Counted from the stretch's first letter, positions 4,686-63,905 are shown. The stretch is 64,000 bases of DNA from an uncultured Elusimicrobia bacterium (GCA_963702895.1 OY969767.1:2418398-2482397), one strand, 5' to 3'. Notes: generated by a model from the letters alone, not told the origin. A program made the numbers and translations.

Positions 4686-4956
4686 TTACCCTAAGTACTG
4701 ACTTTCATAGGAGCGCAGCGGGTTTGCGGGAACGATTTTGATGGCGAGACAAGGAACGAGGAGCGAGCATACCTGGAAGGTATGTAAGCGACGAGAGACG
4801 CGGTCGCAGCCCAAAAGCGTCCCGCCCTGCGGGGACGCCGATCTCGGGCGGATGCGTTGTTGCTTCTCACTCACAGACCGCTTCGGGTATGCTCGTTCGT
4901 CGCGCCTAGCCTCCGCCACGAGCTCGGCGTCCAAACCCGCTGCGATCCTATGAAAG
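4686..4956. repeat. 271-bp element bounded by 33-bp imperfect terminal inverted repeats; MITE-like or structured RNA
   Basis: AGTACTGACTTTCATAGGAGCGCAGCGGGTTTG at the left end pairs with the reverse complement of CAAACCCGCTGCGATCCTATGAAAGGCAGTACT at the right end (2 mismatches). Interior holds further stems, e.g. CGAGCATACC ... GGTATGCTCG and GCGTCCC-N8-GGGACGC. Confidence 0.5.
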
Positions 4957-4969
4957 GCAGTACTAAGCT

Positions 4970-44384: not shown

Positions 44385-45206
44385 ATGAGACGGCGAGCTT
44401 GGCTTTCCTTGCTTCTTTTGGGGTTCTGTGTGTTCAATTTGGCTCCGGGGTCAGAGGCCCGCGTGAAGATTTCGAAGCTTGCTGAGAAATTGGTTTACGG
44501 CGACCAGCCCACGAGGCTCGCCGGGATTGAAGAGTTCAACAAGCTGCCCGCGGAAGCCCAGCAAAAACTGGTACCTGATTTTATGGTCGCCATGAGCGAT
44601 GAAGATCCAGAGGCCCGCAAAATCGCCTCTCGCATCTTGAAAGCGATGGGTGTCCAAGCGGAAGCCCAGGTCCCAGACGCGAAAAAGGAGATCGCCTCAG
44701 AGAAGTCCAAGACCAAGCCCATCGACAAGTGGGAAGAAGAGAAACGCTTAAAACAGGAGGCGAGTCAGGATAAGTGGGCTGATTTAAGAAGCATGCGCTC
44801 GGAAGAGCAGGGGGGCTACGCCTCCATGAAGCAACAACTCGAAAGCGAAAAGAAGGGCCAGGTGTGGATCGATCCCTCCCAGCTCACCACCGAGGCCTTG
44901 GACAAGACCTCGCCTCTCGGTTCTGTGACCGAGGCTTTGCGTGACTCGGATCCGTGGGTGAGAGCACAGGCCGCGCGGCGCCTCGGCACGATCCGGCCCG
45001 CGCCCGTGGAAGCCATCCCCGACCTCATCGCGATGCTGGGTGAGAACATCCCGGAGTCGCGCCGCGCGGCGGCCGCTGCGCTCGGTTCCTTTGGGCCCCT
45101 GGCGGAAAAAGCGCTTCCTGCCCTCACAACGGCCCTCTCCGACCCTGACCCCGCCACGCGGCAGATCGCGCAAGAGGCGATTAAGCAGATTCAAATGCAC
45201 CCGTGA
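44385..45206 (+). CDS. Secreted HEAT-repeat protein
   Basis: Signal peptide; C-terminal HEAT-like repeats (DSDPWVRAQAARRLGTI; ESRRAAAAALGSFG; DPATRQIAQEAIKQI). Confidence 0.6.
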   Translation: MRRRAWLSLLLLGFCVFNLAPGSEARVKISKLAEKLVYGDQPTRLAGIEEFNKLPAEAQQKLVPDFMVAMSDEDPEARKIASRILKAMGVQAEAQVPDAKKEIASEKSKTKPIDKWEEEKRLKQEASQDKWADLRSMRSEEQGGYASMKQQLESEKKGQVWIDPSQLTTEALDKTSPLGSVTEALRDSDPWVRAQAARRLGTIRPAPVEAIPDLIAMLGENIPESRRAAAAALGSFGPLAEKALPALTTALSDPDPATRQIAQEAIKQIQMHP

Positions 45207-50464: not shown

Positions 50465-50494
50465 TTTTCCCTCCCCTGGGTCCCGGCGCGGGCC

Positions 50495-51376
50495 TTACGG
50501 TATGACTTTATTGAGCGGGTACTCGATGATCCCCTCAGCACCCGCGCGCTTGAGCTGAGGGAGCAGCTTCTTGACCGTTTTTTCTTCGATGATCACTTCC
50601 AGTGCCGACCAGCCGGGTTCACTCAAGCTGGCGATGGTAGGACGTTTGAGCGCTGGCAAAAGTTTCATCACTTCCTTCAAATCCTTCTGAGCGACATTCA
50701 TCTTGAGACCCACAAGACCTTCAGCGGCAAGAGCGCCTTGGAGCAGCATCGCGAGATTTTCCATTTTCTCGCGTTTCCACGAGTCTTTCCAGGCCTGCGG
50801 ATTCGCGATAAAACGCGTACTGGAGGTCAGAATCTCCTCCACCACACGCAGTTTATTGGCGCGCAGCGAGCTTCCGGTCTCAGTGAGCTCCACAATGGCA
50901 TCGACCAAGACCCCGGCTTTGGCTTCCGTGGCGCCCCAAGAGAACTCGACTTCGGCATTCACCTTGTGCTTCGCCAAGTATTTCTTGACCACCCCGACCA
51001 GCTCCGTCGCAATCCTTTTGCCTTCCAAATCTTTGACAGACTTAATCGCTGAATCCTGAGGAACCGCCAGCACCCAGCGGACCGGGCGGAAACCGGACTT
51101 TGCATAAAGAAGTTCACAGACTTCATGGACCTTGGCCCCCGACTCCATCACCCAGTCATGACCGGTGAGGCCGGCATCAAAGACACCCTCCGCCACGTAA
51201 CGGGCCATTTCCTGGGAACGGACGAGCATGATTTCAAGCTCATCGTCATCCGTGCCGGGAAAATAGGAGCGCTCCGAAGCGTGCACGCGGATACCGGCAC
51301 GCTTAAAGATTTCAATCGTTGATTCCTGGAGACTCCCCTTGGGAAGCCCGAGTTTGAGTTTTTTGTCTTCAGCCAT
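50495..51376 (-). CDS. hisG: ATP phosphoribosyltransferase, long form with C-terminal regulatory domain
   Basis: [24 protein letters not shown]-terminus, catalytic core, C-terminal regulatory domain; 293 aa. Confidence 0.85.
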
Positions 51377-51452
51377 AAAGAGTCCTTTTATTGAGAAATG
51401 GTAGTGAATTATAGCAAGCAGAGCCAGTGTGGTGATTCCAACGTCGCTTTAT

Positions 51453-52385
51453 TTATGCGGAAGCGATTTTGGCCAGCGTCAAGGTGCGACGAGAGGGCCA
51501 TGGTGAAGCTTTGTAAGCGTGGTGCACATAATCCTGAAAAAGCTGTTGCAAGCGCCGGGTTATGGGCTTGGACAAACCTCGGCCAAGAGGATGCGCCCGG
51601 GAAGATCCCGCGCTCTTGAGCAGGACGACCGGAACAACTTCGAGCGTTGTGCTGGTGAGGAAGACCTCCTCCGCTTTCAGCAGATCAAGCGGCCTGTAGC
51701 GGCCTTCATGAGCTGGAATCTCATGAAGCTTGGCAAGTTTCAAGACCACGCCGCGCGTAATGCCCGGGAGGAGTCCGCAGGCCAGAGACGGCGTGTAGAG
51801 CTGGCCTTGCTTGACGAAAAAGATATTGGAAGTCGTTCCTTCCGTGAGCTCACCCTTCAGGTTCAAGAGGATGGCCTCAAAAACGCCCATCGCGTTGGCT
51901 TCCATCTTCGCCTGAATGGTATTAAGCGAGCTGATGGATTTGATCTGGGGATCGAGCGCCTCGGGCGGGTTACGGCGGACTTGGGTGATCCCAATGGACA
52001 CGCCCTCGCGCTGATAGCGCTCCACGTCTCGATGGGGGTGCAGCATCATCACCAGGGTAGGCGTCTTGCAAACCGATGGATCAAGCCCCAAAGGGCCCGG
52101 GCCGCGCGCCAGGGTGATGCGAACGCTCGCGTTGGGCTGCCGATTGGCTTTGAGCAGTTTCACCACGGCTCTTTCGAGCGCCCGGCCCGCCCATGGGCAT
52201 CTCAAAGCGATGCGGCTGGCAGAATTCAGAAACCTGCGGTAATGGTCAGGCCAATGAAAGATCTGGTAGCCATAGGCATGGACGGTCTCATAAACCCCGT
52301 CGCCGTAGAGAAAGCCATGGTCGAAGGCGGAGACCCTGGCCGAACGCGCGTCGACGAGGCGGTCATTGATCCAGATCATCGCCAA
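51453..52385 (-). CDS. Class IV PLP aminotransferase (aminodeoxychorismate lyase / branched-chain aminotransferase family)
   Basis: SAFDHGFLYGDGVYETV class IV fold motif; 310 aa. Two genes downstream of a chorismate-utilising enzyme, which favours PabC-like. Confidence 0.7.
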   Translation of the reverse strand: MAMIWINDRLVDARSARVSAFDHGFLYGDGVYETVHAYGYQIFHWPDHYRRFLNSASRIALRCPWAGRALERAVVKLLKANRQPNASVRITLARGPGPLGLDPSVCKTPTLVMMLHPHRDVERYQREGVSIGITQVRRNPPEALDPQIKSISSLNTIQAKMEANAMGVFEAILLNLKGELTEGTTSNIFFVKQGQLYTPSLACGLLPGITRGVVLKLAKLHEIPAHEGRYRPLDLLKAEEVFLTSTTLEVVPVVLLKSAGSSRAHPLGRGLSKPITRRLQQLFQDYVHHAYKASPWPSRRTLTLAKIASA

Positions 52386-52390
52386 GAGCG

Positions 52391-53680
52391 TTATCGATCC
52401 TTCGGGGCGAAGTACCCTCGACGCTTATCGAAGGTGAGACTCTCGGCGTTTTCTTTCCACCAGGCTTTGGCTTCTTTGAAGGCTTTCTTCTTGTCTTTGG
52501 AGGTATAGGCGGAGGAGAAATCAAAATTCCTGTGGCAGAGGAGCTCAAAAGCCTGTTCTGCCGGAATCACACCTACGGTCCGAAGGACGCTGAGTTGGTT
52601 GCGCGTCTCATCATCCATAATTTTGTAACTGAGAGGCTGTGTTTGATGGCGTTCGATAAGGGTCATCAGATCCACCAGGGCCGTCCGGTCCCCCAGTGAG
52701 CCGCGCGCCACAAGGCGCCCTCCTGTAGGCCAAGAGCGGGATGCCACCTGGAGGATTGGCAAAGAAGCCCGGCTGTTCCGCCAAGCGAGCAGTACGCTCG
52801 CGTAATCGCCGTAGCCCACGTCATTGACCAGTTTTTCAAGGTACGCGCCCACGCGCGGGTCTGGCTGATGGGCCACCCGGTCCAGGATGTCCTTGGCTTC
52901 GGACCAGTCGGCAACGTGTTGCCTGGCTCCGGCGGCAGGGCCATTGCTCCAAGCGATGATTTTCTCCTGCTCCTGCTCCGGCCTTTTTTCAAAGGCGACT
53001 TGGGCGTCCTTGATCCCTTCTGGCACGTACCAGAACTGCTCTTGCGCAAAGGGATGGACGCGTATCTGCTGGAGCCTGGATCTTGTGTCCTTTAAAAGGT
53101 GCCCCACGAGGTCCGCCTTACCCCCCTGGCTTTTCCACCATTTCTGCCAGACCTTGACGGATGGATCGAGACGCTTGCCGGTCACCTCCTGAAGAATCTC
53201 ATAAGCGAGCACATTCGGTCCGGGGACCTTGAGGAGATTGATCAGCTCAGGAACATGCGCGGGTTGGATGAAGAGCACGAGTTTTTTTCGTGCCTTGTTT
53301 CGCAAATCCGGGTTCTTGCTACGAAGTCCCGCCAAATAGAGATTGCCTGAGAGGGAGAAGCTGTCCCATCTTTGGGACACGATGCCCGCCAGAACACATC
53401 GCGCGGAGGGGTTGAGCTTTGAGCGGACCTCCGCTTTGCCCAGCAAGGTTCGCACGTTGAGAAAATCGGGGCCATCCTGATCGTAGATTGAGCGCAGGAT
53501 GGAGAATCCAGGGTCGGTCATGTCGCTGAGCTGCTCTTCGGGGATCTGGTTGAGCCGCTGGATAAGCTGAAGGACCGAAGTCTCCTCCGCAGCAGGGGCG
53601 GATCCCGACAACATCGCAAGCGCTAAGATCAAAGAGACAAGAGATGAGAGACGGATGGTGGGGTGTCGTGACGGGTTCAT
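52391..53680 (-). CDS. Hypothetical secreted protein
   Basis: Signal peptide (LSSLVSLILALAMLSGSAPAAEE). No recognised motif. Start overlaps the upstream stop. Confidence 0.45.
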   Translation of the reverse strand: MNPSRHPTIRLSSLVSLILALAMLSGSAPAAEETSVLQLIQRLNQIPEEQLSDMTDPGFSILRSIYDQDGPDFLNVRTLLGKAEVRSKLNPSARCVLAGIVSQRWDSFSLSGNLYLAGLRSKNPDLRNKARKKLVLFIQPAHVPELINLLKVPGPNVLAYEILQEVTGKRLDPSVKVWQKWWKSQGGKADLVGHLLKDTRSRLQQIRVHPFAQEQFWYVPEGIKDAQVAFEKRPEQEQEKIIAWSNGPAAGARQHVADWSEAKDILDRVAHQPDPRVGAYLEKLVNDVGYGDYASVLLAWRNSRASLPILQVASRSWPTGGRLVARGSLGDRTALVDLMTLIERHQTQPLSYKIMDDETRNQLSVLRTVGVIPAEQAFELLCHRNFDFSSAYTSKDKKKAFKEAKAWWKENAESLTFDKRRGYFAPKDR

Positions 53681-55227
53681 GGAAGCCTCCTGTCTTTCGT
53701 GGGTGCCGGGACGCTCGCCCCCAATGCCTCGAGCATCGCCGCAGCTTTATAGAGTGTTTCCTGATATTCCCGAAGAGGAACGGAATCCGCGACAATGCCG
53801 GCGCCCACGGGAAAGGACAACTGGTTCTGATCGAGAAAGAGGGTCCTGATCAGGATATTCAGGGTGGCATCTCCCGTAAACCCGATCCATCCGAGAGACC
53901 CGGTATAGGGCCCGCGCTTGTGCGGCTCGAGTTTATGAATGATTTCCATCGACCGGATCTTCGGACAGCCTGTGATGGTACCTCCGGGAAAGGCGGCGCG
54001 CAGAAGATCCAGCCAGGAACATTCAGGTTTGAGCGTTCCGCGCACGTCGGAGACCAGGTGAATCACATGCGAATAAATCTCCCGGACCAGAGCTTCGGCC
54101 ACACGAACGGTCTTCGGCAAGCACACGCGCCCTAAATCATTGCGCTCAAGGTCCACGAGCATGATATGTTCCGCGCGCTCCTTCGCATCTTGCGCGAGGG
54201 CCTTCGCGAGCCAGACGTCATTGGAGAGCGGCACTCTTCTCGGATAAGTGCCCGCGATCGGTCGCGTCTCCACGCGCCCAGCTTCCAGACGCAGGAGAAG
54301 TTCCGGGGATTGACTGACCATCCAGCGTGTGCCGGATTTATAAAGCGCCGCGTAGGGAGAGGGATTAATCCGGGTCAGCTCCCGGTAGAGTGCCCAGGGA
54401 TGACCGCTCCATCGCGAGGTAAAGGCCTGGCTCAGATTACATTGGTAGATCTCTCCTGCCGCAATGAGGCCCTTGGCGCGCCGTACCATCAGTTGATAAG
54501 CGGCCTCCGAACGGTTGGACCGCACGTCCGTCGCATGGAACTCTCCCCAAGACCTATGACGATGAATGGCCTTCTGGAGAACCACCGCTGATCGACGCAA
54601 ACGGTCCTGCCCCTGGCGGTAAAGGCGTTCCAGTTGAATCGGGGAGAGCGCACGGCCTTCAGGAATGAAAACAGAATGCACAAGCCACAAACGCTTCCTG
54701 GCGTGATCGATCGCGGCCACCGCGTCATAGATGCCAAACTCGAAATCCGGAAATCTTTCTACGGAGAGCATCGCGGGTTTAGGCCGTTTGCTTTGGAACA
54801 GAGACTGAAGGCGCGGCTCGAGCGATGCCGCGCTTTCATAGCCAAAATACCCTACCGCCCCACCCCAAAAGGGAGGAAGCCCGTCCACGCGGGGTCCTGT
54901 CATAGGACTAAACCAACCATGGAAGCGTTCAAAGGTGTTCCCGATTTTGATGGCTTCTTGCTTGGTCCCGGAGGAGGTGCGATGACGGAGCGTTAACGTG
55001 TCCTGGGCGGCCTCGACATGATACCGAGGAGCGTCGAGCGATAAATAAGAATATCGGGCCTGGGAGCCACCCGCAGCGCTGTGGAGAAAAAACGAATCCT
55101 TGTCCTGGGACTGGAGGTTATACACCCACTCCAGCAAATCGCTGGAAGGGAGGTGCGGCTCGATCCAAAGAGGGACCACCCGGTACTGGGTGGCCCAGCG
55201 GGCGAACTGATTAAAGGTCGGAAACAT
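53677..55227 (-). CDS. Chorismate-utilising enzyme, anthranilate/aminodeoxychorismate synthase component I family
   Basis: Chorismate-binding C-terminal domain (RPIAGTYPRR; GGTITGCPKIRSMEII; GAGIVADSVPLREYQE). Lies next to a class IV aminotransferase, suggesting PabB/PabC. Confidence 0.8.
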   Translation of the reverse strand: MFPTFNQFARWATQYRVVPLWIEPHLPSSDLLEWVYNLQSQDKDSFFLHSAAGGSQARYSYLSLDAPRYHVEAAQDTLTLRHRTSSGTKQEAIKIGNTFERFHGWFSPMTGPRVDGLPPFWGGAVGYFGYESAASLEPRLQSLFQSKRPKPAMLSVERFPDFEFGIYDAVAAIDHARKRLWLVHSVFIPEGRALSPIQLERLYRQGQDRLRRSAVVLQKAIHRHRSWGEFHATDVRSNRSEAAYQLMVRRAKGLIAAGEIYQCNLSQAFTSRWSGHPWALYRELTRINPSPYAALYKSGTRWMVSQSPELLLRLEAGRVETRPIAGTYPRRVPLSNDVWLAKALAQDAKERAEHIMLVDLERNDLGRVCLPKTVRVAEALVREIYSHVIHLVSDVRGTLKPECSWLDLLRAAFPGGTITGCPKIRSMEIIHKLEPHKRGPYTGSLGWIGFTGDATLNILIRTLFLDQNQLSFPVGAGIVADSVPLREYQETLYKAAAMLEALGASVPAPTKDRRLP

Positions 55228-56446
55228 CGCCGTCTAAGGTCCGCATGACAAGGCCCGTGGTGACCTTGGGATAGAAATAAGTCGATTTTTGGGGCAGGGG
55301 CCTGCCCGCTTTACAAATGCGGGCAAACACCTCTTTGTCAGGGGGCGGCAGCAGGAACACCGCATCGTATTCCCCGCGCATGAGGTGTTCCGCCATCTCG
55401 CGCGGATTTTGCCCATAGGAGATCTGCTCCAGCGGAATATCTTTGAGGACGCCCTCATGCAGCGCGACCACAGGCATGGGAGAGACTTTGTCCTTGGGCG
55501 AGAGCCAGTAGGCCGGACCACTTTTTAAAAGAAGCCCCATGCCGGAATGCTCATTCTTTCGTCTCAAGCGGCTCATGACAACGCTCAAGCCCGGGACCTT
55601 TCGAAGGATGAAATAGGGCGTGATGCGATTTTCCCATTCCGCTTGTGAGGCTTGATAGCGCACGGCTCGATGCGTCGGTTGAATGACAAGCCCCGGGTCC
55701 GTCAGGGAGCACAAAAAGGTCATCACGTAATGGTAAGCCTTTGTCTTTTTGGACGAGTGCTGGCTTGCTTGAGAGCGCTCCTGTGCATAATCCCAAGACG
55801 TTTCATACCGGTGATGGCCGTCTGCGATCAAAATATCCCCTGAAGAAACGATTTTTCTTAAGGCCTTGATCGTTGGAGGATCTGACCATTTCCATAAGCG
55901 GTGTGTGACGCCTTTGTCGTCCCGGCAAACGAGAAGCGGTTTTGCCTGCATGCGCTCGCCGATGATCTTACAGGCCTGGCTTTGGGGGTCGAAATAGATG
56001 CCAAAGATAGGGCTGATGTTGGCGCGCGTCGCGCGCATGAGCATCAGACGGTCCGCCTTATGCTTGGGGAAGGTCCGCTCATGAGGACGGATGCGGCCTC
56101 TCCCCGGTTTTTCCACACGCAGCGCCGCGAAGAACCCCTGACGCACAAAAGGCGCGCCGCTCACATTAAATCGTTGTTCATACCCGTAGAAGCATGGTTC
56201 TTTTTCTCGGATGAGCGTCTTGTTGTTCTGCCACTTCTTCCAGAAAAGCGCGGCGACCTCATATTTGTCTTTGCTGCCCTGGGTCATCGGAAGCTCCACG
56301 CGGACCATGTTCCAGGGACTCCTGCCCATCAAGCGGTGATAGTCCGTGATGCTGATCACGTCATAGGGAGGGCAAATGATCTGGGAAAGGCTGGGGTGGC
56401 GCTTGAGGTTATAGCGAAGTGCCTTGAAAGGCGCGATCTCGACCAT
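55211..56446 (-). CDS. Conserved hypothetical protein (DUF1015-like)
   Basis: 411 aa, soluble, no catalytic motif recognised. Overlaps the downstream gene start. Confidence 0.45.
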   Translation of the reverse strand: MVEIAPFKALRYNLKRHPSLSQIICPPYDVISITDYHRLMGRSPWNMVRVELPMTQGSKDKYEVAALFWKKWQNNKTLIREKEPCFYGYEQRFNVSGAPFVRQGFFAALRVEKPGRGRIRPHERTFPKHKADRLMLMRATRANISPIFGIYFDPQSQACKIIGERMQAKPLLVCRDDKGVTHRLWKWSDPPTIKALRKIVSSGDILIADGHHRYETSWDYAQERSQASQHSSKKTKAYHYVMTFLCSLTDPGLVIQPTHRAVRYQASQAEWENRITPYFILRKVPGLSVVMSRLRRKNEHSGMGLLLKSGPAYWLSPKDKVSPMPVVALHEGVLKDIPLEQISYGQNPREMAEHLMRGEYDAVFLLPPPDKEVFARICKAGRPLPQKSTYFYPKVTTGLVMRTLDGDVSDL

Positions 56447-56483
56447 GCTGCTATTTTAGCTTAGAAGGGCTTTCGAAACGAGT

Positions 56484-57803
56484 CTAGCTGACAGGAAGCT
56501 TGGAAAAAGTTTTTTCGATGGCGGCAAGGGCCTTCTTCAGCACAGCCTTGGAGTGGGTGGTCGTGATAAAAGCGGCCTCAAAGGCGGAAGGAGGAAGGTA
56601 GACGCCGCGTTCCAGAAGCTCATGGAAGAACGTCGCGTAGAGCGCTGTGTTGGACCTTTGAACACTGACAAGGTCGACCACAGGAGCGTTGTTGAAGAAG
56701 AGTGTCCACATGGAACCGATGCGATTGATACGGACAGGCAGGCCCGCTTCCCTTGCGATCTCTTCAATTTCACCGGTGAACCAGGTTGTTACTTTTTCAA
56801 GGGCTTTATAAGGTGATCGTGCTTTCAGGATGGTGAGCGTGGCAATGCCGGCAGCGACCGCCACGGGGTTGCCCGCCAGGGTGCCAGCCTGGTAAACAGG
56901 GCCTAGGGGAGCGACCCATTCCATGATGTCGCGCCGACCGCCATAGGCGGCCAGGGGCATTCCCCCCCCTACGATCTTGCCAAGACAGGTGAGATCTGGC
57001 GTGACTTTATAAACGGTTTGAGCGCCGCCGTAGTTGACGCGGAAACCGCTGATCACTTCGTCAAAAATAAGAAGAGCATTATGCGCCGACGTAAGGGTTC
57101 GGAGTTCTTCCAAAAAACCCTCGCGCGGAGGGACCACGCCCATATTGGCGGCGATAGGCTCCACAATGACAGCGGCGATCGACTCGCCTTCCCTCCGAAA
57201 GAGGTCCCGAGCGGCTTCAAGATCGTTGTAGGGCAAAACGCGGGTTTTCTGGGCCAAGGAAGCCGGAATCCCGGCAGAATCGGGCGAGGAGAGCGTCAGC
57301 GCCCCGGAACCGGCCTTGACGAGGAGCGAATCGACATGCCCATGGTAACATCCGGAAAATTTCACAATCACTTCGCGCTGGGTGGCCGCTCTTGCGACAC
57401 GCAAGGCGGACATCACAGCTTCCGTGCCTGAGCTGACCAAGCGCATGCGCGCCATGGACGGAACAGCCTTTTGAATAAGCTGTCCCAACTCCAGTTCCAG
57501 CTCCGTAGGAGCCCCAAAGGAGAGACCCCGCTTGGCTGTGCGGGCAATCGTTGCCGCAAGCACATTCGGTATATGCCCCAAGACAGAGGCGCCCCAAGAG
57601 CCACAGAAGTCGATCAGCCGGTGGCCATCGGCGTCCCACACATAGGGGCCCTGGCCGCGCGTGATAAAGCGCGGCGTCCCTCCCACGCCCTTAAACGAGC
57701 GGACCGGGGAATTCACACCACCTACAAAAACGTCCTGGGACTTCCTAAATAAGAGATCGGATTTCTTCGTTTTCATGGGTTCATTCGGGCAAAATACTAC
57801 CAT
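56484..57803 (-). CDS. hemL: Glutamate-1-semialdehyde 2,1-aminomutase
   Basis: GGVNSPVRSF N-terminal block, class III aminotransferase fold. An alternative start at the Met about 9 codons downstream (near 57776) is possible. Confidence 0.85.
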   Translation of the reverse strand: MVVFCPNEPMKTKKSDLLFRKSQDVFVGGVNSPVRSFKGVGGTPRFITRGQGPYVWDADGHRLIDFCGSWGASVLGHIPNVLAATIARTAKRGLSFGAPTELELELGQLIQKAVPSMARMRLVSSGTEAVMSALRVARAATQREVIVKFSGCYHGHVDSLLVKAGSGALTLSSPDSAGIPASLAQKTRVLPYNDLEAARDLFRREGESIAAVIVEPIAANMGVVPPREGFLEELRTLTSAHNALLIFDEVISGFRVNYGGAQTVYKVTPDLTCLGKIVGGGMPLAAYGGRRDIMEWVAPLGPVYQAGTLAGNPVAVAAGIATLTILKARSPYKALEKVTTWFTGEIEEIAREAGLPVRINRIGSMWTLFFNNAPVVDLVSVQRSNTALYATFFHELLERGVYLPPSAFEAAFITTTHSKAVLKKALAAIEKTFSKLPVS

Positions 57804-57901
57804 TTGAACCCGTCGTTGACAATATCGACGGAAAATTTTACAATCCGCATCGGACCCACAGCAACGACACCGTAAATATCAATCCATATCTAAAAATAAA
57901 C

Positions 57902-58606
57902 ATGATTTCGGCATTATTATTTGATTTTGGGGGCACCCTGGACTCCGATGGCGAGCATTGGCTTAACCGGTTCTATGCCATTTATCCCGATATAGGCTTA
58001 CCCGAAGTGCCTAAACCAAAGATTAAAGAGGCCTTTTACTGGGCTGATGAGCAGGCGAGTATCGACCCTGCCATGCGTCAGGCCGGTCTCAGACAAATGA
58101 CCGAGCTTCACGTCCGCTGGCAATTTCATAAACTGGGGCTCCATGACCGTCAGCTTGAAGTCGAAGCCGCGGCGGCCTTCTACAAACCGGCCAACCGAAT
58201 TCTTCGTCGTAATCGACACGTTCTAGAGAAATTAAAACACGCTGGTTTGAAACTCGGGATCCTCTCGAATTTTTATGGCAACATCGACACACTCTGCAGG
58301 GAATATTCCTTCTCCCCCCATTTGGACATCATCTTGGACTCGGCCGTGATCGGAATAAAAAAGCCTGACCCGAGGCTCTTTGCGCTTGCCTGCGAGCGGC
58401 TGAAGCTACCGGCCCATGAAATCGCTTTTGTCGGCGACTCCTTTGAGCGTGATATCGTCCCAGCGAAAATCCTTGGAATGAAGACGTTTTGGCTTGTTGG
58501 AGATCGCAAGCTCACACCCCCTGAGCCCGCCAAAGTGGACTGCATCCTTCGAAGCCTGGCGGACCTCCCCCATGATCTTGTCCCTCACCACAAAGATCCC
58601 AAATGA
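57902..58606 (+). CDS. HAD-superfamily hydrolase (phosphatase-like)
   Basis: N-terminal LLFDFGGTLD (DxD/G-type motif I) and distal FVGDSFERDI motif. Confidence 0.7.
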   Translation: MISALLFDFGGTLDSDGEHWLNRFYAIYPDIGLPEVPKPKIKEAFYWADEQASIDPAMRQAGLRQMTELHVRWQFHKLGLHDRQLEVEAAAAFYKPANRILRRNRHVLEKLKHAGLKLGILSNFYGNIDTLCREYSFSPHLDIILDSAVIGIKKPDPRLFALACERLKLPAHEIAFVGDSFERDIVPAKILGMKTFWLVGDRKLTPPEPAKVDCILRSLADLPHDLVPHHKDPK

Positions 58607-59472
58607 AGGCAGGCATCATCGCGGCGGGATGGGGCCAGAGACTAGCTCAGAACATCCCCAAAGCCCTGACGCCCATAGGACGGAGAGCTCTGATCGATTA
58701 CGCCCTCGACGGCTTGCAAGCCGCGGGGGCGAGCGAAGTGACCTGTATTGTCAACGAAGCCGCAAGGTCGGTCCCCGACTATGTGGCAAAAGCCAGTCGA
58801 AGAATCAAAATGGACTGGGTGATTCAAACGACACCTTCGTCGATGCACAGTTTTTTAATCGTGCTGGAGCATCTCGCGAATCAGCCCTCACCCCCAACCC
58901 TCTCCCGCGTGCACGCGGGAGAGGGCGAGGTCCGCAGGGCCGCGGGTGAGGGGAGCGAAGCCTTTTTGATTACCACGGTGGACTCGGTTGGTCCGCTTTC
59001 GATCTACAAGGATTTTGTCGAATCTTGCCAGCACTTCCCGGACGCGGATCTCTGCCTGGGGCTGACCCCCCATACCGACGACGAAAAACCCCTACGCGTG
59101 GCGATGCGCGGCAAGGAAGGAACAGGCCTGCTCCCGGAGCGCGTGGCGCAAGATCCCCCGGCCTTTGAGATCACGGCGATGAGCAGCAACGGATTCGAAA
59201 GCGAGTTCGTGACCGCCGGCCTCTACTGGGCTCATCCGCGCATTCTCCAAGAGAAGGAGAAGGTTCTCTCCGGCGGGCTCTCAGCGCTGCGGCAGTACTT
59301 CGGCTACCTGTTAAAATATGGTTATCGTTTCTACGGTGTGCCCCTGCCGCCAGTTCTGGACGTGGACCGGCCTCAGGACATCGCAAAGGCTGCAGAATGG
59401 GAACGCTCCGGGCTCGTGGCGCAAGCCACGGGCAGCGCCCAAGCGCCTCCAGCCGAAAGACGAGAGGGATGA
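58603..59472 (+). CDS. Nucleotidyltransferase (sugar/polyol-phosphate nucleotidyltransferase-like) carrying an in-frame palindromic insertion
   Basis: N-terminal GIIAAGWGQRLAQNIPKALTPIG nucleotide-binding signature. Start overlaps the upstream stop. Confidence 0.6.
   Translation: MKAGIIAAGWGQRLAQNIPKALTPIGRRALIDYALDGLQAAGASEVTCIVNEAARSVPDYVAKASRRIKMDWVIQTTPSSMHSFLIVLEHLANQPSPPTLSRVHAGEGEVRRAAGEGSEAFLITTVDSVGPLSIYKDFVESCQHFPDADLCLGLTPHTDDEKPLRVAMRGKEGTGLLPERVAQDPPAFEITAMSSNGFESEFVTAGLYWAHPRILQEKEKVLSGGLSALRQYFGYLLKYGYRFYGVPLPPVLDVDRPQDIAKAAEWERSGLVAQATGSAQAPPAERREG
58885..58950. repeat. Nested palindrome (CCCTCACC ... GGGTGAGGG family) lying in frame inside the nucleotidyltransferase gene
   Basis: CCCTCACCCCCAACCCTCTCCCGCG-TGCA-CGCGGGAGAGGGCG ... 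GCGGGTGAGGGG. Same family as the metH insert at 47930-48000. Confidence 0.55.
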
Positions 59473-60320
59473 TGCGTTTCTTGGGTATTTATCGTGAGCC
59501 AGAGTTTTCTCCTGGCCGACACCTGTCCAATGACGCCAAAATCCTGCGCTTGGTCGCACAGGCCTTAGCGTGCCAGGACATCTCGGTGCGCCTGGCCACG
59601 CTGGAAGAGGCTCGAGGCGAGTGGCAGGACGCGGACCTCATTTTCTCCATGTGTCAGGGGCCACAAGCTCTCCACGAGCTCACGCGGTGGAAGAGGCAGG
59701 GCGCTTGGATCCTCAATGACCCCGAAGCCTCTCGCCGGACCTATCGCGACAGCCTCTGTTCAGCCCTGCGCGAAGAGGATCTGAGATTTCCGCACAGCGA
59801 ATTTATTTCCACGAGCGCCCACCTCCGGGACCTGGAAAGTTTTCAGCCCTGGTTCTTGAACGAAGGCGCCTGGCTTAAACGCGCGGATGTCCACGCGACC
59901 ACCCCGTCCGACGTGGTGAAACTCGAACGGTGGTCAGACTTGAACTCGGTACTCGGAAGATTTCGCGCGCGCGGCCTCGAGAAAGCGGTTTTGCAGCATC
60001 ATTGCCCGGGCGATGAAGTGAAGTTCTATGCCGTCAAAGGGGATCGCCTGTTTTGGCCTTACTACCCTAAAGAATCCGAAGGGCACCCTTTTGATGAAAA
60101 AGCGCTCAAAGCCCTCGCGGAGCATGCGGCCAAAACGTTGGATCTCGCCATTTATGGCGGAGACGCGATTATTTCCCCGGAAGGCAGGATCACTCTGATC
60201 GATTTAAACGACTGGCCATCTTTCGCCCCCTGCCGGGGTGCCGCGGCCAGCGCCATCGCCAAATTCTTAAAGGATGCCTATCGTGCCCGCCAAAACAAAA
60301 GAGAAACAGCCAAAGTCTAA
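59469..60320 (+). CDS. ATP-grasp-like protein
   Basis: Start set at the MMRFLGIY Met overlapping the upstream stop. ATP-grasp-like blocks (EVKFYAVKGDRLFW; GGDAIISPEGRITLIDLNDWPSF). Confidence 0.5.
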   Translation: MMRFLGIYREPEFSPGRHLSNDAKILRLVAQALACQDISVRLATLEEARGEWQDADLIFSMCQGPQALHELTRWKRQGAWILNDPEASRRTYRDSLCSALREEDLRFPHSEFISTSAHLRDLESFQPWFLNEGAWLKRADVHATTPSDVVKLERWSDLNSVLGRFRARGLEKAVLQHHCPGDEVKFYAVKGDRLFWPYYPKESEGHPFDEKALKALAEHAAKTLDLAIYGGDAIISPEGRITLIDLNDWPSFAPCRGAAASAIAKFLKDAYRARQNKRETAKV

Positions 60321-61755
60321 GTTCGTCCGACGTACGACGTCCGACGCCCGCACATCTCACCCGAAACGGCCTCTGCGGGTCGCCCCTGGCCCCGAAGGAC
60401 TTCAGGACGTCGGACCTCGGACGTCGGACGCCCTCACAGGCTGGCCCGGCCCAAAATCCGTCGCCCTCTTCGAAGAGGAGCAAGCTTTCCTCTCCCCAGG
60501 CAATCAGTCGATCGCGCTCCTCTCGAAATTAACGATCGAGCGTGGCAGCGGCTGTCGCCTCACGGATGCTGACGGCAACTCCTATCTCGACTTGAATGGA
60601 GGTGTTTCGAGCGCAAGCCTTGGCCACTGCCATCCAAAGTTCGTTCAGGCGATGACGGACCAGCTCTCCAAAGTGACCCTGGGCAGTTATACCAGCCGTT
60701 CCCGTCTGGCTTTGGTCAAGTTGCTCGCGAAGATTGCCCCCAAAGGCCTGCGGCGGACTCAGTTTTTTTCCAGCGGCGCCGAAGCCGTCGAGGCCGCTTT
60801 TCGGCTCGCGAAGTCGATCACGAAGAAAAACCAGATCTTTGGGTTCTGGGGTGGCTATCATGGCAAAACACAAGGGACCCTGCCGCTTTCTCTGGTTGAT
60901 TGGAAGTTCGAGCTCGGCCCCTTGATGGCCGGCTACCAACAGACGCCTTATGCGGACTGCTACCGTTGCCCCTTCCGTGCGCGCTATCCGGAATGTGGTC
61001 TGGCCTGCGCTGAATATTTCCGTGATCAGATCCGTGCGACCGCCAGAGGCGACGTCGCCGCCGTTATCGCCGAGCCTGTTCAGGGCACGGCGGGCAATAT
61101 CGTTCCTCCCGATGGATTCATTCGAGCGGTATGCGAAATCGCCAAAGAGGAAGGTGCTGTCTTTATCTCGGACGAAATGATTACGGGCTTTGGCCGCACC
61201 GGTCACATGTTCGGCGTGGACCACGACAACGTCTTGCCGGACGTGATGAGCGTGGGCAAAGGCATGGGCAACGGTTTCCCCGTATCGGGCGTCATCACCA
61301 CGGACGCGCATGCCCAGGCCAGGCCCTGGTCGCTCCCCAGCGCATCCTCTTCGAGCTACGGGGGCAATCCTTTCGCGAGCGAAGCGGTGCGCGTCACGAC
61401 GCAAACGATCCTCGAAGAGGACCTCGTGAACAACAGCGCCCGCGTGGGACGCGTGCTCTTGGATGGCATTCGAAAGCTCCAAGGCCACTATCCTTTTATC
61501 GGGGACGTGCGCGGGCGTGGGCTGCTGATCGGCATGGACCTGGTCAAAGACCGCAAGACAAAGGAGTTCCTGCCTGCGGTCCTTTGCGAGAAGTTCTTTT
61601 TTGAATGTTTAAAGCGCGGTCTCCTCATGATGAGTTACACGCCGCGCGTCCGCATTCATCCGCCCTTGGTCCTGAGCGAATCCGAAGCCCAGGAAGCTCT
61701 CGCCAAAATGGATGAAGCGTTGGCGACCCTTGTCTCCGACTTCGAGAAGCTATGA
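60274..61755 (+). CDS. Class III PLP-dependent aminotransferase (omega-aminotransferase family)
   Basis: GGYHGKTQGTL, DEMITGFGRTGHMFGVDH and the PLP-lysine block SVGKGMGNGFP. About 50 N-terminal codons span the inverted-repeat element; no canonical in-frame start lies downstream of it. Confidence 0.75.
   Translation: MPIVPAKTKEKQPKSKFVRRTTSDARTSHPKRPLRVAPGPEGLQDVGPRTSDALTGWPGPKSVALFEEEQAFLSPGNQSIALLSKLTIERGSGCRLTDADGNSYLDLNGGVSSASLGHCHPKFVQAMTDQLSKVTLGSYTSRSRLALVKLLAKIAPKGLRRTQFFSSGAEAVEAAFRLAKSITKKNQIFGFWGGYHGKTQGTLPLSLVDWKFELGPLMAGYQQTPYADCYRCPFRARYPECGLACAEYFRDQIRATARGDVAAVIAEPVQGTAGNIVPPDGFIRAVCEIAKEEGAVFISDEMITGFGRTGHMFGVDHDNVLPDVMSVGKGMGNGFPVSGVITTDAHAQARPWSLPSASSSSYGGNPFASEAVRVTTQTILEEDLVNNSARVGRVLLDGIRKLQGHYPFIGDVRGRGLLIGMDLVKDRKTKEFLPAVLCEKFFFECLKRGLLMMSYTPRVRIHPPLVLSESEAQEALAKMDEALATLVSDFEKL
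60324..60429. repeat. Inverted-repeat element (duplicated 9-mer arms) at the 5' end of the aminotransferase ORF
   Basis: CGTCCGACGTACGACGTCCGACG ... about 60 bp ... CGTCGGACCTCGGACGTCGGACG. Just downstream of the ATP-grasp stop and in frame within the N-terminal extension of the next ORF. Confidence 0.5.
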
Positions 61756-62822
61756 CGAAACTGCAGGGGGCTTTCATCGGCTTTGGCAAGACCGCGGAAC
61801 TGGGGCACTGGCCTTCTTACACCCGCTCCTCGGACGCGGAAATTGTGGCCGTCATGGACCCCGCGCCGGCCCGCCAGCAGGCAGCACGCGTTCTTGATCC
61901 TCGCTTGCGTGTGTACGGCTCGGTGGAGGAGCTTTTCCGGACCGTGGAGCTCGATTTTGTCGATATCTGCGCGCCTCCTTCCTTTCACGCGCCCCTCGCA
62001 CTCGAGGCCCTGGAGCATCGGTGTCATGTCTTGTGCGAAAAACCCTTGACCTTGAAACCTTCGGAGTATGGGGCGCTCTCCCAGGCCATGAATCGTCATG
62101 GCCGGACGGTCTTTACCGTACACAACTGGAAGTTCGCGCCCATCTTTCAAAAGGCGCTCTCGCTCATCCAGGAAGGTCGGATTGGACCGGTGTGGCATGT
62201 GGAGATCTTCACCCTGCGCGACAACGCATGCAAAGGATCAGAATCGGCGGCGCAAAGAGCGGATTGGCGAAAAAGTATGGCGGTGGCGGGCGGCGGGATT
62301 TTGGTGGACCATGGATGGCATTCGTTCTACCTTCTCTTAAACCTGGTCAACGCCGAGCCGCAGAAAATCCTCGCCAAGATGCTCAAAGATCGGGAGGATC
62401 CGGAGAGCCTGGAGGAAGCAGTCCAAGCGCTGGTGCAATTCCCGGAAGCCCATGGCTACCTCCACCTGACTTGGTGTGCCCCCACGCGTCGGAACCATGT
62501 CCTGGTTCAGGGACAAAAGGGAATACTCCTGATCGACGATGACCGACTTCTCCTCACGACGCGTGACGGCCAGCGAGAGGAAGCCCACTTTGACGCCCCG
62601 CTCTCCGCCGGATCGCATCATGCGGATTGGTTTCAAGCGCTTTTACCGGAGTTTGTCGCTGAAATCAACATTCCCTCCAAACGCGGCACCAACTTCAAGG
62701 AGGCGGGCTGGTGCCTGGCACTGACGTCGGCCGCCTATCAATCGAACCTCCAAGGTTTTAAAGAGGTCTCGGTCGACTTTCCTGGCACCTTCAACGCGCC
62801 AGTCGCTCAAGAAAGCGGCTGA
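61752..62822 (+). CDS. Gfo/Idh/MocA-family NAD(P)-dependent oxidoreductase
   Basis: N-terminal Rossmann fold (FIGFGKTAELGHWPSY) and EKPL motif (HVLCEKPLTL). Start overlaps the upstream stop. Confidence 0.75.
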   Translation: MTKLQGAFIGFGKTAELGHWPSYTRSSDAEIVAVMDPAPARQQAARVLDPRLRVYGSVEELFRTVELDFVDICAPPSFHAPLALEALEHRCHVLCEKPLTLKPSEYGALSQAMNRHGRTVFTVHNWKFAPIFQKALSLIQEGRIGPVWHVEIFTLRDNACKGSESAAQRADWRKSMAVAGGGILVDHGWHSFYLLLNLVNAEPQKILAKMLKDREDPESLEEAVQALVQFPEAHGYLHLTWCAPTRRNHVLVQGQKGILLIDDDRLLLTTRDGQREEAHFDAPLSAGSHHADWFQALLPEFVAEINIPSKRGTNFKEAGWCLALTSAAYQSNLQGFKEVSVDFPGTFNAPVAQESG

Positions 62823-63905
62823 TCAGTTCGGAGGCGGGGAGGTGGGTTTGAATTTGGACAGACGCCAGAAGATCCAGAGGCCAGCGCAGTTCCAGAAGAT
62901 TTCACGAACACGTCGTATGAGAGCCACCGACACACCCAACGCAGGAGGAAGCCCCAGAGCGGCCGCCGCGAGATAGTGCCCTCCTTCATAAAGACCGATC
63001 CCCGCGGGGGCAAAAAGTCCGACGACGGCAGCCAGTTGTGCCATGGCCCCCACATACCAAGCTTCACGCCAATTGACCGCGTGACCGATTAGGCGGAAGA
63101 TGATCGCCACTTCGAGGGCCCCGGCCACCCAACCCGCACTGTGCCACAACGTGCTTCCCAAGAACCGGAGTTTGCCTTCTCGGTAGAAGGCCCCGATGGA
63201 ATCATCCAGAGCGTTGAGCTTTCCTTCCTGTTTCTTCAGCCAGGGGTGCCCGGTGAGATTGTGAAGCCACGCCCCTATCCGACTCAACGACCGGCTGGCC
63301 AAAAGAAAAGTAAAGATCATAATGCCCAGACACAAGGCCATGAGCGCGATGAGCGTTTTAGGGTGATGGGCGAGTCCCGGTTGTCCGCGTTGCGTGCCGA
63401 GCGTTAGTCCGACGCCTACAAAAAGCACCAGTCCTATGCTTTGCGCGGCTTTTGCGATCAGGACAGAAGACGCCGCTTCGCGCAAGGGGACCCACCGGGA
63501 TAAGAGCTGCGCTTTTAAGGGCTCGCCACCGACATAACCAGAGGGCAAAAGAGAATTAAAAGTTTCGCCGGAGAGGCGGATCTGCAATAACCGCAAGAGA
63601 GGCTGATTGGCATATTCCTGATGCAGCGCCATGCGCCACCCTTGAGTGTTGAGCAGATTCCAGCTCACAGCATAAACAATCACCAGGAGGTAGCCCCAGC
63701 CGATCATGCCAAGGGAATGTTGGATCTGCTGCCATCCCACTTCGTGGATGAGAAAAACGACGATCGCCACTCCGATCAGAACACCCAAAGCGCGGAGGAG
63801 GGTCATGAAGCGACTTTTCCGAGGATCAGGCTCGCCCAGAAGTTGATGGTAGATAGCCCTCAGCGACACTAAAAACGCGATACCTAGGGGCGCGTGAACA
63901 GGCAT
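62823..63905 (-). CDS. Polytopic membrane protein (lysylphosphatidylglycerol-synthase-like / flippase-like transmembrane domain)
   Basis: At least 8 hydrophobic helices over 360 aa; resembles the membrane domain family associated with MprF-like proteins. Confidence 0.5.
   Translation of the reverse strand: MPVHAPLGIAFLVSLRAIYHQLLGEPDPRKSRFMTLLRALGVLIGVAIVVFLIHEVGWQQIQHSLGMIGWGYLLVIVYAVSWNLLNTQGWRMALHQEYANQPLLRLLQIRLSGETFNSLLPSGYVGGEPLKAQLLSRWVPLREAASSVLIAKAAQSIGLVLFVGVGLTLGTQRGQPGLAHHPKTLIALMALCLGIMIFTFLLASRSLSRIGAWLHNLTGHPWLKKQEGKLNALDDSIGAFYREGKLRFLGSTLWHSAGWVAGALEVAIIFRLIGHAVNWREAWYVGAMAQLAAVVGLFAPAGIGLYEGGHYLAAAALGLPPALGVSVALIRRVREIFWNCAGLWIFWRLSKFKPTSPPPN

Follow-up and report, generated by a model that had tools for sequence, protein, structure and literature searches.

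The stretch of DNA analysed here (hereafter the window) comprises 64,000 nucleotides from an uncultured Elusimicrobia bacterium. Five confirmed open reading frames (g1 to g5), all on the plus strand, lie between positions 57902 and 62822 and are followed by a convergent gene, g6, that abuts g5 (Table 1). The co-directional arrangement with overlapping stop and start codons described in the initial annotation is borne out when the junctions are read from the sequence: g1 and g2 overlap in an ATGA (58603-58606), as do g4 and g5 (61752-61755), and g2 and g3 meet in an ATGATG (59469-59474) across a TGA at 59470-59472, the g3 start codon being the ATG at either 59469 or 59472. At the g3/g4 junction the overlap is longer, 47 nt, with the g4 ATG at 60274 and the g3 stop codon at 60318-60320; this exceeds a mere stop/start overlap. 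The g4 start is backed by an MPIVPxKT-type N-terminus conserved among its relatives. A candidate promoter, the sole strong sigma-70-like match across 57600-63100, is found 58 nt 5' of g1 within the 98-bp divergent region that separates hemL from g1.

Table 1. Features of the operon and its immediate surroundings (positions in the window)
Feature	Position	Strand	Basis
Candidate sigma-70-like promoter, TTGACA-17-TACAAT	57816..57844	+	Consensus match only, 11/12 positions
g1, HAD-superfamily hydrolase, family IA-like	57902..58606	+	Pfam Hydrolase
g2, sugar/alcohol-phosphate nucleotidylyltransferase, probable cytidylyltransferase	58603..59472	+	Pfam NTP_transf_3 and family profile
Nested palindromic insertion, in frame, in g2 variable loop	58885..58952	+	Repeat and RNA fold
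g3, member of unnamed ATP-grasp family, signature gene of the cluster	59469..60320	+	
g4, class III (omega-type) PLP aminotransferase	60274..61755	+	Pfam Aminotran_3
Structured inverted repeat in lineage-variable N-terminal linker of g4, spanning g3 stop	60309..60445	+	
g5, Gfo/Idh/MocA NAD(P)-dependent dehydrogenase	61752..62822	+	Pfam GFO_IDH_MocA, N- and C-terminal domains
g6, LPG_synthase_TM/HpnL-like polytopic membrane protein, flippase-like	62823..63905	-	Pfam LPG_synthase_TM

The encoded proteins and two inserted elements

The g1 protein matches the Pfam Hydrolase (61 bits) and HAD_2 (55 bits) models, with every NCBIfam match falling far below its cutoff. It retains the nucleophilic aspartate, the motif III lysine and a motif IV of the form G-D-S-x-x-x-D, but its motif I reads D-F-G-G-T and lacks the usual second aspartate, the general acid/base at position +2. 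Absence of this residue is atypical for a HAD phosphomonoesterase, yet D-x-G-G-T is the motif I of 70 of 74 HAD proteins encoded in clusters of this kind. Judged by these motifs, g1 is a member of the HAD fold for which 'phosphatase' is a putative and unproven label. The Pfam NTP_transf_3 match of g2 (32 bits) covers the N-terminal part of the protein only, the catalytic motif (G-x-G-x-R...K) being present. A profile of the g2 family (A3) matches RmlA (56 bits) and LicC and also covers the full-length inositol-1-phosphate cytidylyltransferases (IPCT) 4JD0, 2XME and 4MND (E-values of 1e-11 to 2e-8), although RmlA outscores IPCT in this profile and g2 itself reaches only 22 bits against the NCBIfam IPCT model NF041135 (cutoff 580).

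The aminotransferase g4 scores 315 bits against Pfam Aminotran_3 and has the expected context around the PLP lysine. Its best relatives in NCBIfam and the PDB are generic (GABA/ornithine-type, dialkylglycine decarboxylase, racemases and ethanolamine-phosphate phospho-lyase) and all its NCBIfam matches are under their cutoffs. In g5, which matches GFO_IDH_MocA at 78.5 bits together with the C-terminal domains of that family, the EKP motif is present; the best NCBIfam match is inositol 2-dehydrogenase IolG (TIGR04380), whose cutoff of 355 bits lies far above the 72 bits scored, and the PDB relatives are glucose-fructose oxidoreductase and inositol dehydrogenases. These scores place g5 in the Gfo/Idh/MocA family and no more specifically than that.

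The product of g3 is labelled 'hypothetical protein' by NCBI, and nothing was found with its sequence in Pfam, in NCBIfam (ATP-grasp models included) or by phmmer against the PDB. This sets it apart at the sequence level from the named members of the ATP-grasp superfamily, whether ligases (RimK/LysX/ArgX, Ddl) or kinases (ITPK1/PPIP5K), and there is no Pfam match to Ins134_P3_kin or an equivalent family. A profile search of the PDB returned PsnB as the top match (E = 0.009), with ITPK1 at E = 0.7 only, over the C-terminal Mg-site motif. AF2 gave a poor model (pLDDT 65) when supplied with 31 close homologues, a problem remedied with a 133-sequence alignment, and g3 has the three-domain ATP-grasp fold. 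Comparison of structures did not tell kinase and ligase chemistry apart. Across 133 diverse members K136, K184, D244 and N246 are invariant and D231 is conserved in at least 90%; by analogy, these residues would be the ATP-binding lysines and the Mg-binding acidic/Asn triad, the Mg-site motif being D-x-N. The family is large, with ~1,100 representative clusters at 50% identity, and a Bacteroidales member used as query retrieves more than 5,000 proteins at E ≤ 1e-20. The five enzyme classes initially proposed for the operon hold up, the HAD, NTP transferase, aminotransferase and dehydrogenase by Pfam and the ATP-grasp enzyme by its three-domain fold.

Two structured elements lie within these genes. 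The insertion in g2 contains a perfect 28-nt palindrome (58898-58925) with flanking arms of 17 nt, is predicted to fold as RNA (58880-58958) at -51.7 kcal/mol (z -5.1), is missing from the orthologue at locus L028 and has a second copy at 47930-48000. The repeat at the g3/g4 junction is built of inverted arms, 41 nt long at 76% complementarity and 19 nt long at 89%, with a predicted fold of -62.6 kcal/mol (z -2.8) for 60305-60450; the g4 N-terminal linker in which it lies differs in length between Elusimicrobiota orthologues.

A conserved core with an optional amination module

The same neighbours recur around g3 homologues in distant lineages. [quoted passage not shown] The g2 homologue lies directly 5' of g3 in nearly all loci. 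Several of the partners are also found fused: HAD-NTP-ATP-grasp in protein P0151, NTP-ATP-grasp (the g2-g3 type) in at least six representative proteins, ATP-grasp with the CDP-alcohol transferase in P0197 and NTP-ATP-grasp-CDP-alcohol transferase in P0203. Recurrence of the same neighbours across phyla, with fused proteins among them, puts the grouping far outside what chance would give: g1 to g5 form a genuine operon serving one pathway. The single shared pathway suggested in the initial annotation is supported by this co-occurrence, which also answers the concern raised there that such neighbours might not be conserved; synteny and fusions rule out five unrelated housekeeping genes.

The aminotransferase and dehydrogenase behave differently from the core. 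Directly 3' of g3 in 49 of 84 loci, g4 is accompanied by g5 in 28 of 29 loci, g5 never occurs without g4, and Bacteroidota loci have neither. The pair is an optional accessory module, present on an all-or-none basis. Residue 62 of g3 follows the module closely: all 50 loci that have g4 encode Gln at this position and all 33 that lack it encode Arg, with at least two transitions on the g3 tree. Because this residue tracks the presence of g4, g3 itself probably recognises the cyclitol.

By homology, the core of the operon is recognisably the B. vulgatus-type alternative inositol-lipid cluster, itself known but uncharacterised, which was predicted, without functional confirmation, by Heaver (2022, Nat Microbiol, PMC9246714) and remains unconfirmed (PMC9246714; PMC10191378). 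In B. vulgatus the cluster comprises an NTP transferase (BVU_RS13095), a CDP-alcohol phosphatidyltransferase (BVU_RS13105) and a HAD hydrolase (BVU_RS13115) and lies near MIPS and an LPG-synthase homologue (PMC9246714). The HAD of a Bacteroidales cluster aligns with g1 at 33% identity (tblastn, E = 1e-29, 57905-58534) and the two share the D-x-G-G-T motif I. In Bacteroidales, Muribaculum and Sphingobacterium, g2 homologues with common A3 motifs adjoin g3, and the g3 family member sits between the NTP and CDP-alcohol transferase genes; the LPG_synthase_TM partner is also shared. The window differs in its extra aminotransferase and dehydrogenase, in having neither a local CDP-alcohol transferase nor MIPS, and in that the transferase of sister Elusimicrobiota is of another, DIPPS-like subtype. 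The published model of the alternative cluster makes no mention of an ATP-grasp gene, and a literature search found no functional study of it. No g3 family member named Phocaeicola vulgatus was among the matches listed (mostly Muribaculaceae), the tie to the B. vulgatus cluster being gene order in other Bacteroidales and the locus-tag gap between RS13095 and RS13105. Bacteroidota with only this type of cluster make a plain inositol-phosphodihydroceramide of the same mass as that of B. thetaiotaomicron (PMC9246714), and B. vulgatus makes Cer-PI and no diacyl-PI (PMC10056535).

The partner CDP-alcohol transferases have their best matches in archaetidylinositol-phosphate synthase, PIP synthase and DIPPS, all far below cutoffs. 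In one reading, the pathway would end not in a lipid but in a soluble phosphodiester resembling di-myo-inositol-phosphate or glycerophosphoinositol, aminated in the present case; g2 would be the IPCT, the transferase would act as a DIPPS, and the HAD would carry out the last dephosphorylation. Di-myo-inositol-phosphate synthesis (IPCT/DIPPS; NF041135, 4MND, 2XME, 4JD0) does resemble the cluster in that the g2-family and partner-transferase profiles match and a phosphatase step comes at the end. The transferase of sister Elusimicrobiota has the DIPPS domain as its best match (82 bits), many homologues of the partner transferase carry the JGI name IPCT/DIPPS, Verrucomicrobial loci hold an extra pair that is IPCT-like (111 bits) and DIPPS-like, and DIPPS is a membrane protein despite its soluble product. 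Nevertheless, we consider this reading very unlikely. The scores are far under the family cutoffs, and the known pathway makes a soluble thermoprotectant, a solute of thermophiles, with neither an ATP-grasp enzyme nor amination, whereas the hosts here are mostly MAGs whose names point to soil, groundwater or gut, alongside cultured isolates from gut and soil. The flippase-like partner of 33 loci, the sphingolipid-type genes that adjoin the cluster in Verrucomicrobiota (Spt/KBL-like and KdsR-like SDR genes, together with GNAT) and the lipid data from Bacteroidota (PMC9246714) also argue against it.

A proposed route to an aminocyclitol lipid

We see about an even chance that the operon encodes the soluble steps for a membrane-lipid head group carrying a phospho-linked, amino-modified inositol (an inosamine-like aminocyclitol). 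In this Kennedy-type scheme, inositol phosphate made by MIPS, whose gene would lie elsewhere in the genome, if present at all, would be dephosphorylated by g1; g5 would oxidise the free cyclitol and g4 transaminate the oxidised form; g3, as a cyclitol kinase like ITPK1 and PPIP5K, would re-phosphorylate the resulting aminocyclitol; g2 would convert the phosphate ester to a CDP-cyclitol; the CDP-alcohol phosphatidyltransferase would move the phospho-cyclitol to diacylglycerol, ether lipid or ceramide; and g6 would flip the lipid. Here we infer which substrates are used, in what order the steps run, that g3 works as a kinase and not as a ligase, and which lipid is the acceptor. A membrane-lipid head group is the probable product because of the CDP-alcohol phosphatidyltransferase, the convergent LPG_synthase_TM gene g6 and the Spt- and KdsR-like genes of Verrucomicrobiota, and the cyclitol reading gains support from MIPS in 29 of the 54 loci and from transferases that best match families using inositol phosphate. 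An experimentally reported parallel is the CDP-inositol-dependent ether-lipid pathway of Rhodothermus marinus, with its MIPS-IPCT-BEPIS operon (Jorge, Borges & Santos 2015, as related in PMC4587543). Compared by description only, it is also of the Kennedy type, a cytidylyltransferase making the CDP-cyclitol and an enzyme of the CDP-alcohol-transferase family passing it to a lipid alcohol, but the account given in PMC4587543 includes no ATP-grasp enzyme, HAD, aminotransferase or dehydrogenase.

Several observations sit uneasily with the proposed route: g1-type HAD proteins lack the second motif I aspartate, g5 scores far below the IolG cutoff, g4 is of class III whereas known inosose aminotransferases belong to the DegT family, and MIPS and the CDP-alcohol transferase are absent from the window. 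No inosamine-headed lipid came up in a search of the literature. Another conceivable head group is aminopentanetetrol, which a class III transaminase might produce from a pentose aldehyde.

The chemistry of g3 admits a further reading, in which it is a true ligase that couples an amino acid or comparable carboxylate to the amine that g4 introduces, or else to a hydroxyl of the cyclitol, giving an acylated or aminoacylated head group. PsnB as top PDB match, the g3/g4 overlap seen in 49 loci and the role of LPG_synthase_TM domains as flippases of aminoacylated lipids in MprF all speak for it, while the Mg-site motif is D-x-N where E-x-N is usual for such ligases. Moreover, g3 is equally conserved, and fused to the NTP and CDP-alcohol transferases, in clusters that have neither g4 nor g5, and Bacteroidota with the core cluster only make plain PI-dihydroceramide (PMC9246714); we regard a ligase as improbable. 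As g3 is just as well conserved where the reported product is an unmodified inositol-phosphoceramide, we infer that it would act as a kinase. The same observations bear on the product envisaged in the initial annotation, an aminated, nucleotide-activated or amide-ligated sugar or cyclitol derivative: the cyclitol is strengthened by MIPS and the inositol-type transferases, and amide ligation becomes the weakest part, because the ATP-grasp protein is equally conserved without the aminotransferase and such Bacteroidota make plain inositol-phosphoceramide (PMC9246714).

The order of events could also be turned round, as in a CDP-DAG-like route. Here g3 would act as a kinase on the lipid anchor, converting for instance ceramide to ceramide-1-phosphate, g2 would make a CDP-lipid, the transferase would couple this to inositol-1-phosphate or an aminated inositol phosphate, and the HAD would remove the remaining phosphate; g5 and g4 would supply the aminated inositol phosphate, as NtdC and NtdA do on glucose-6-phosphate. 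Every gene would then do what is usual for its relatives. The families closest to the partner transferase (archaetidylinositol-phosphate synthase, PIP synthase and DIPPS) all take an inositol-1-phosphate acceptor and need a later phosphatase. The kanosamine pathway, in which NtdC, NtdA and NtdB are a Gfo-family dehydrogenase, an aminotransferase and a HAD phosphatase, provides precedent on a sugar phosphate. Compared by enzyme class only, the three likewise replace a hydroxyl group with an amine on a phosphorylated hexose, which is then dephosphorylated, but NtdA is DegT-type rather than class III and the pathway involves no nucleotide activation, ATP-grasp enzyme or lipid transfer. Against the CDP-DAG-like route, g2 is a soluble nucleotidylyltransferase of the sugar-phosphate type, whereas the CDP-lipid synthases known to us are of the CdsA/CarS or Tam41 types; a switch at residue 62 that tracks the amination module would be unexpected if g3 saw lipid only; and the HAD motif I lacks its general-acid aspartate. 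Such a route would account for Cer-PI without diacyl-PI in B. vulgatus (PMC10056535), and we nonetheless hold it to be unlikely.

In sister Elusimicrobiota, g6 is followed by a CDP-OH_P_transf gene that is absent at this locus. Relative to loci L005 and L086, ~700 bp, the size of that gene, is cleanly missing between g6 and the next conserved gene, and no remnant of it was found 3' of g6. Searches of the 64-kb window with tblastn and profile HMMs found no MIPS, CDP-alcohol transferase, Spt-like, GNAT or SDR partner, and no orthologue of the sister-genome transferase was found on the 2,724,539-bp contig of this genome among the best 120 matches. With the partner transferase absent from the locus, the end product is less certain here than in the sister genomes. 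The operon might even be a remnant or have been repurposed, the transferase having been deleted, so that it yields only a soluble CDP-aminocyclitol or nothing useful and is perhaps decaying; the palindromic elements in g2 and at the g3/g4 junction would fit such a history. Yet the five ORFs and g6 are intact, catalytic motifs are present in g2, g3, g4 and g5, the insertions preserve the reading frame and fall where relatives also vary, and the place of the missing transferase could be taken by a more divergent one elsewhere in the genome, so that decay or repurposing seems to us quite unlikely. The g6 protein scores 121 bits against Pfam LPG_synthase_TM. A link between g6 and hopanoids was considered and rejected, as its match to NCBIfam HpnL (TIGR03476) is 149 bits against a cutoff of 196 and no hopanoid genes were noted among the ORFs examined nearby.

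Implications for bacterial inositol lipids

The probable membrane-lipid product, the published core cluster and the optional aminotransferase/dehydrogenase addition all went unremarked in the initial annotation. Read together, and tentatively, they may describe an unrecognised class of lipid with a phospho-linked aminocyclitol head, made by a Kennedy-type CDP-aminocyclitol route, in which the unnamed ATP-grasp family is the bacterial inositol/inosamine kinase that has long been sought. That kinase would also supply the step lacking from the alternative inositol-sphingolipid route of gut Bacteroidota. Such a lipid class would extend to Elusimicrobiota, Verrucomicrobiota, Ignavibacteria, Acidobacteriota, Gemmatimonadota and Myxococcota.

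Both host interaction and envelope biology are affected by the inositol lipids and sphingolipids of bacteria, and the alternative pathway of many gut Bacteroidota is still a prediction only. The published gene set for that pathway is incomplete, the ATP-grasp gene being present in every full-flank locus sampled and sometimes fused to its partners. The two-gene amination module probably turns the shared core into a pathway for amino-inositol lipids in six or more other phyla, the majority known from metagenomes alone, and the Gln/Arg difference at residue 62 of g3 is a sequence marker that would predict which product a genome makes.

The operon and its gene calls

Of the features described for this operon in the initial annotation, five co-directional genes with overlapping junctions are borne out by ORF calling, which returns five plus-strand ORFs in 57902-62822 (g1 to g5), and by the sequence at the junctions. 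Three of these are stop/start overlaps of the ATGA type, whilst g3 and g4 overlap by 47 nt, the upstream ATG of g4 being backed by an N-terminus conserved among orthologues. Pfam likewise agrees with the HAD, nucleotidyltransferase (a weak match), class III aminotransferase and Gfo/Idh/MocA labels. None of the five genes reaches an NCBIfam equivalog cutoff, g5 scoring well under that for IolG. A promoter scan found no site in the operon interior comparable to the sigma-70-like match 5' of g1.

Features of the operon and its surroundings (window coordinates unless a locus is named)
Feature	Position	Strand	Assignment or remark
Block 5' of operon	48950-57803	-	seven genes, HisG and hemL among them
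Sigma-70-like site	57816-57844		5' of g1; TTGACA-17-TACAAT, one strong match
g1	57902-58606	+	HAD (Pfam)
g2	58603-59472	+	NTP_transf_3 (Pfam, weak, 32 bits)
g3	59469/59472-60320	+	ATP-grasp family
g3 residue 62	about 59655-59657		putative specificity position
g4	60274-61755	+	Aminotran_3 (Pfam, 315 bits)
g5	61752-62822	+	Gfo/Idh/MocA (Pfam)
g6	62823-63905	-	convergent; LPG_synthase_TM / HpnL-like membrane protein
Transferase gap	L001 (this genome) 4889-5143 vs L005 4617-5323, L086 14456-15175		3' of window 63905
Palindromic element, copy in g2	58885-58952		in frame
Palindromic element, second copy	47930-48000		in frame in ORF at 45203-48904
Inverted repeat	60309-60445		across g3 stop and variable N-terminal linker of g4

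Two kinds of repeat lie within the coding sequences. A nested palindromic element, with outer arms CCCTCACCCC...GGGTGAGGG and an inner hairpin CCCTCTCCCGC-loop-GCGGGAGAGGG, is present in at least two copies in the window, both within long ORFs (g2 and an ORF of 1233 aa), and looks like a REP/MITE-like repeat tolerated in coding loops (RNA fold of the g2 copy -51.7 kcal/mol, z -5.1). The different inverted repeat at the g3/g4 junction (arms of 41 nt at 76% and 19 nt at 89% complementarity, fold -62.6 kcal/mol, z -2.8) also contains a 31-nt direct repeat whose copies are 84 nt apart, and could affect g3/g4 translational coupling.

A conserved neighbourhood across phyla

The nearest named relatives of g3 are from Elusimicrobiota, and a search of 1.84 billion cluster representatives recovered 1107 family representatives at E<=1e-3. 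With a Bacteroidales member as query, more than 5,000 proteins were matched at E<=1e-20, under the NCBI name 'hypothetical protein'. A one-genome-per-species scan identified 593 g3 relatives, and 80 loci were kept for comparison, from Elusimicrobiota, Verrucomicrobiota (Chthoniobacterales), Polyangiales/Myxococcales, Gemmatimonadota, Acidobacteriota, Ignavibacteria/Melioribacter, Chlorobiota, Chloroflexota and Bacteroidota (Sphingobacterium, Olivibacter, Muribaculaceae and other Bacteroidales). ORFs were called in all loci, matched against the window proteins and then clustered.

Partners were counted in those 54 loci whose flanks reach at least 5 kb upstream and 6 kb downstream of g3. [quoted passage not shown] These, LPG_synthase_TM apart, form with the ATP-grasp gene a core set. 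The class III aminotransferase (29/54) and Gfo/Idh/MocA dehydrogenase (28/54) go together in 28 of 29 loci, the sole exception being an assembly whose sister contigs carry the dehydrogenase; the dehydrogenase in no case occurs by itself. The best matches of the partner transferases are archaetidylinositol-phosphate synthase, PIP synthase and the DIPPS domain of di-myo-inositol-phosphate synthesis, all under cutoff.

Gene order (AT, aminotransferase; GFO, Gfo/Idh/MocA; CDPOH_PT, CDP-alcohol transferase) is NTP-g3-AT-CDPOH_PT-GFO-LPG_TM-HAD-MIPS in Ignavibacteria and Acidobacteriota, NTP-g3-CDPOH_PT-(LPG_TM)-HAD-MIPS in Bacteroidota and Chloroflexota, and HAD-NTP-g3-AT-GFO followed by convergent LPG_TM-CDPOH_PT in Elusimicrobiota. 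Fusions among the family representatives (HAD-NTP-ATPgrasp, ATPgrasp-CDPOH_PT, NTP-ATPgrasp-CDPOH_PT and, in six, NTP-ATPgrasp) tie the predicted pathway steps together.

In Verrucomicrobiota (L010-L018, L020-L023) the same five genes have further genes around them within about 7 kb of g3 on each side, namely an Spt/KBL-like alpha-oxoamine synthase, a KdsR-like SDR, a large GNAT, a second NTP transferase (IPCT-like) and a second DIPPS-like transferase; the Chthoniobacterales locus looks like a combined sphingolipid and inositol head-group island. Directly 5' of the NTP transferase, Muribaculum and other Bacteroidales carry a gene for a PdxA-family dehydrogenase (L085 5108-6214; cluster cl25, 10 Bacteroidales loci); this may be coincidence (housekeeping pdxA) or a further pathway member. 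The block 5' of our operon (YhdP/AsmA-like, HisG, class IV aminotransferase, hypothetical, chorismate-binding PabB-like, DUF1015, hemL) is collinear in Elusimicrobiota L003, L007, L028 and L086; it is lineage synteny, and lies outside the lipid cluster in other lineages.

A similar gene set was reported by Heaver et al. 2022 (PMC9246714) under the name 'B. vulgatus-like putative alternative inositol lipid cluster'. There, genes for an NTP transferase, a HAD hydrolase and a CDP-alcohol phosphatidyltransferase lie close to MIPS and to a homologue of LPG synthase, and the cluster is found in inositol-phosphodihydroceramide producers without the B. thetaiotaomicron genes. A CDP-inositol (Kennedy-type) route was proposed, which the authors call unconfirmed, and a 2023 review gives the same account (PMC10191378). 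B. vulgatus makes inositol-phosphoceramide and no diacyl-PI (PMC10056535). Rhodothermus marinus is reported to have a lipid pathway that depends on CDP-inositol (MIPS-IPCT-BEPIS), as described in PMC4587543. The ATP-grasp gene is mentioned neither in PMC9246714 and its supplements nor in the other papers from our literature search.

The ATP-grasp family and a proposed pathway

We infer all chemical steps of the most economical scheme, which runs from MIPS to g6. The MIPS product would be dephosphorylated by g1, optionally oxidised by g5 and then transaminated by g4, re-phosphorylated by g3 and CDP-activated by g2; the CDP-alcohol transferase would transfer it onto lipid, to be flipped by g6. 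Caveats to this scheme are the score of g5, far below the IolG cutoff, and the fact that the inosose aminotransferases known so far are of the DegT type, not class III. In nearly all cluster HADs (g1 and its 74 homologues from the related loci) motif I is D-x-G-G-T, not D-x-D, and thus lacks the general acid/base Asp at +2. This makes 'phosphatase' a putative label, and the same holds for the 'PI-DHC synthase' role suggested in the literature.

Family-invariant residues of g3 are R8, R92, K136, K184, D244 and N246, and in the alignment its Mg-site motif D-x-N ('IDLNDWPSF') is the same as that of ITPK1. Structure comparison gives ligases as the closest folds, a caveat to the kinase reading. The reported Bacteroidota product is unmodified inositol-phosphoceramide (PMC9246714), in which an amide or ester ligase would be traceless whereas a kinase would leave a trace, which argues for g3 as a kinase. 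Tannerella forsythia makes inositol ceramides from exogenous inositol, yet no inositol kinase is known there (PMC4587543).

All 50 aminotransferase-bearing loci have Gln at residue 62 of g3, and all 33 loci lacking that gene have Arg. The aminotransferase-positive loci are not monophyletic in a neighbour-joining tree. The split suggests that the site which g5 and g4 would aminate is also where g3 binds the cyclitol. Among 133 representatives in the family alignment, Gln occurs in 72, Arg in 42 and Glu in 16, the last hinting at a third cluster variant.

A missing transferase and the place of the operon

In sister Elusimicrobiota (L005, L006, L007, L002/L004, L086), the gene that comes directly after g6 encodes a DIPPS-like CDP-alcohol transferase. 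The gene is kept after LPG_synthase_TM in every other Elusimicrobiota locus compared; here it is cleanly gone (about 700 bp), with collinear flanking genes and intact operon ORFs. Neither MIPS nor any CDP-alcohol transferase was found within the 64-kb window. Orthologues of the L086 transferase occur on many contigs that seem to carry g3 orthologues too, and none of its best 120 matches, all at least 60% identical, lies on the source contig (2,724,539 bp). This genome is an exception among Elusimicrobiota carriers.

The conserved neighbours, the fusions and the link to the inositol-lipid cluster support and sharpen the earlier proposal that one pathway makes a cyclitol or sugar derivative that is aminated and nucleotide-activated. 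We place the operon in a widespread, putative inositol-lipid head-group cluster, as a variant with an amination module. The cluster type itself is already known, though unconfirmed; what is newest here is the ATP-grasp family, overlooked until now, together with the aminocyclitol lipid that we predict.
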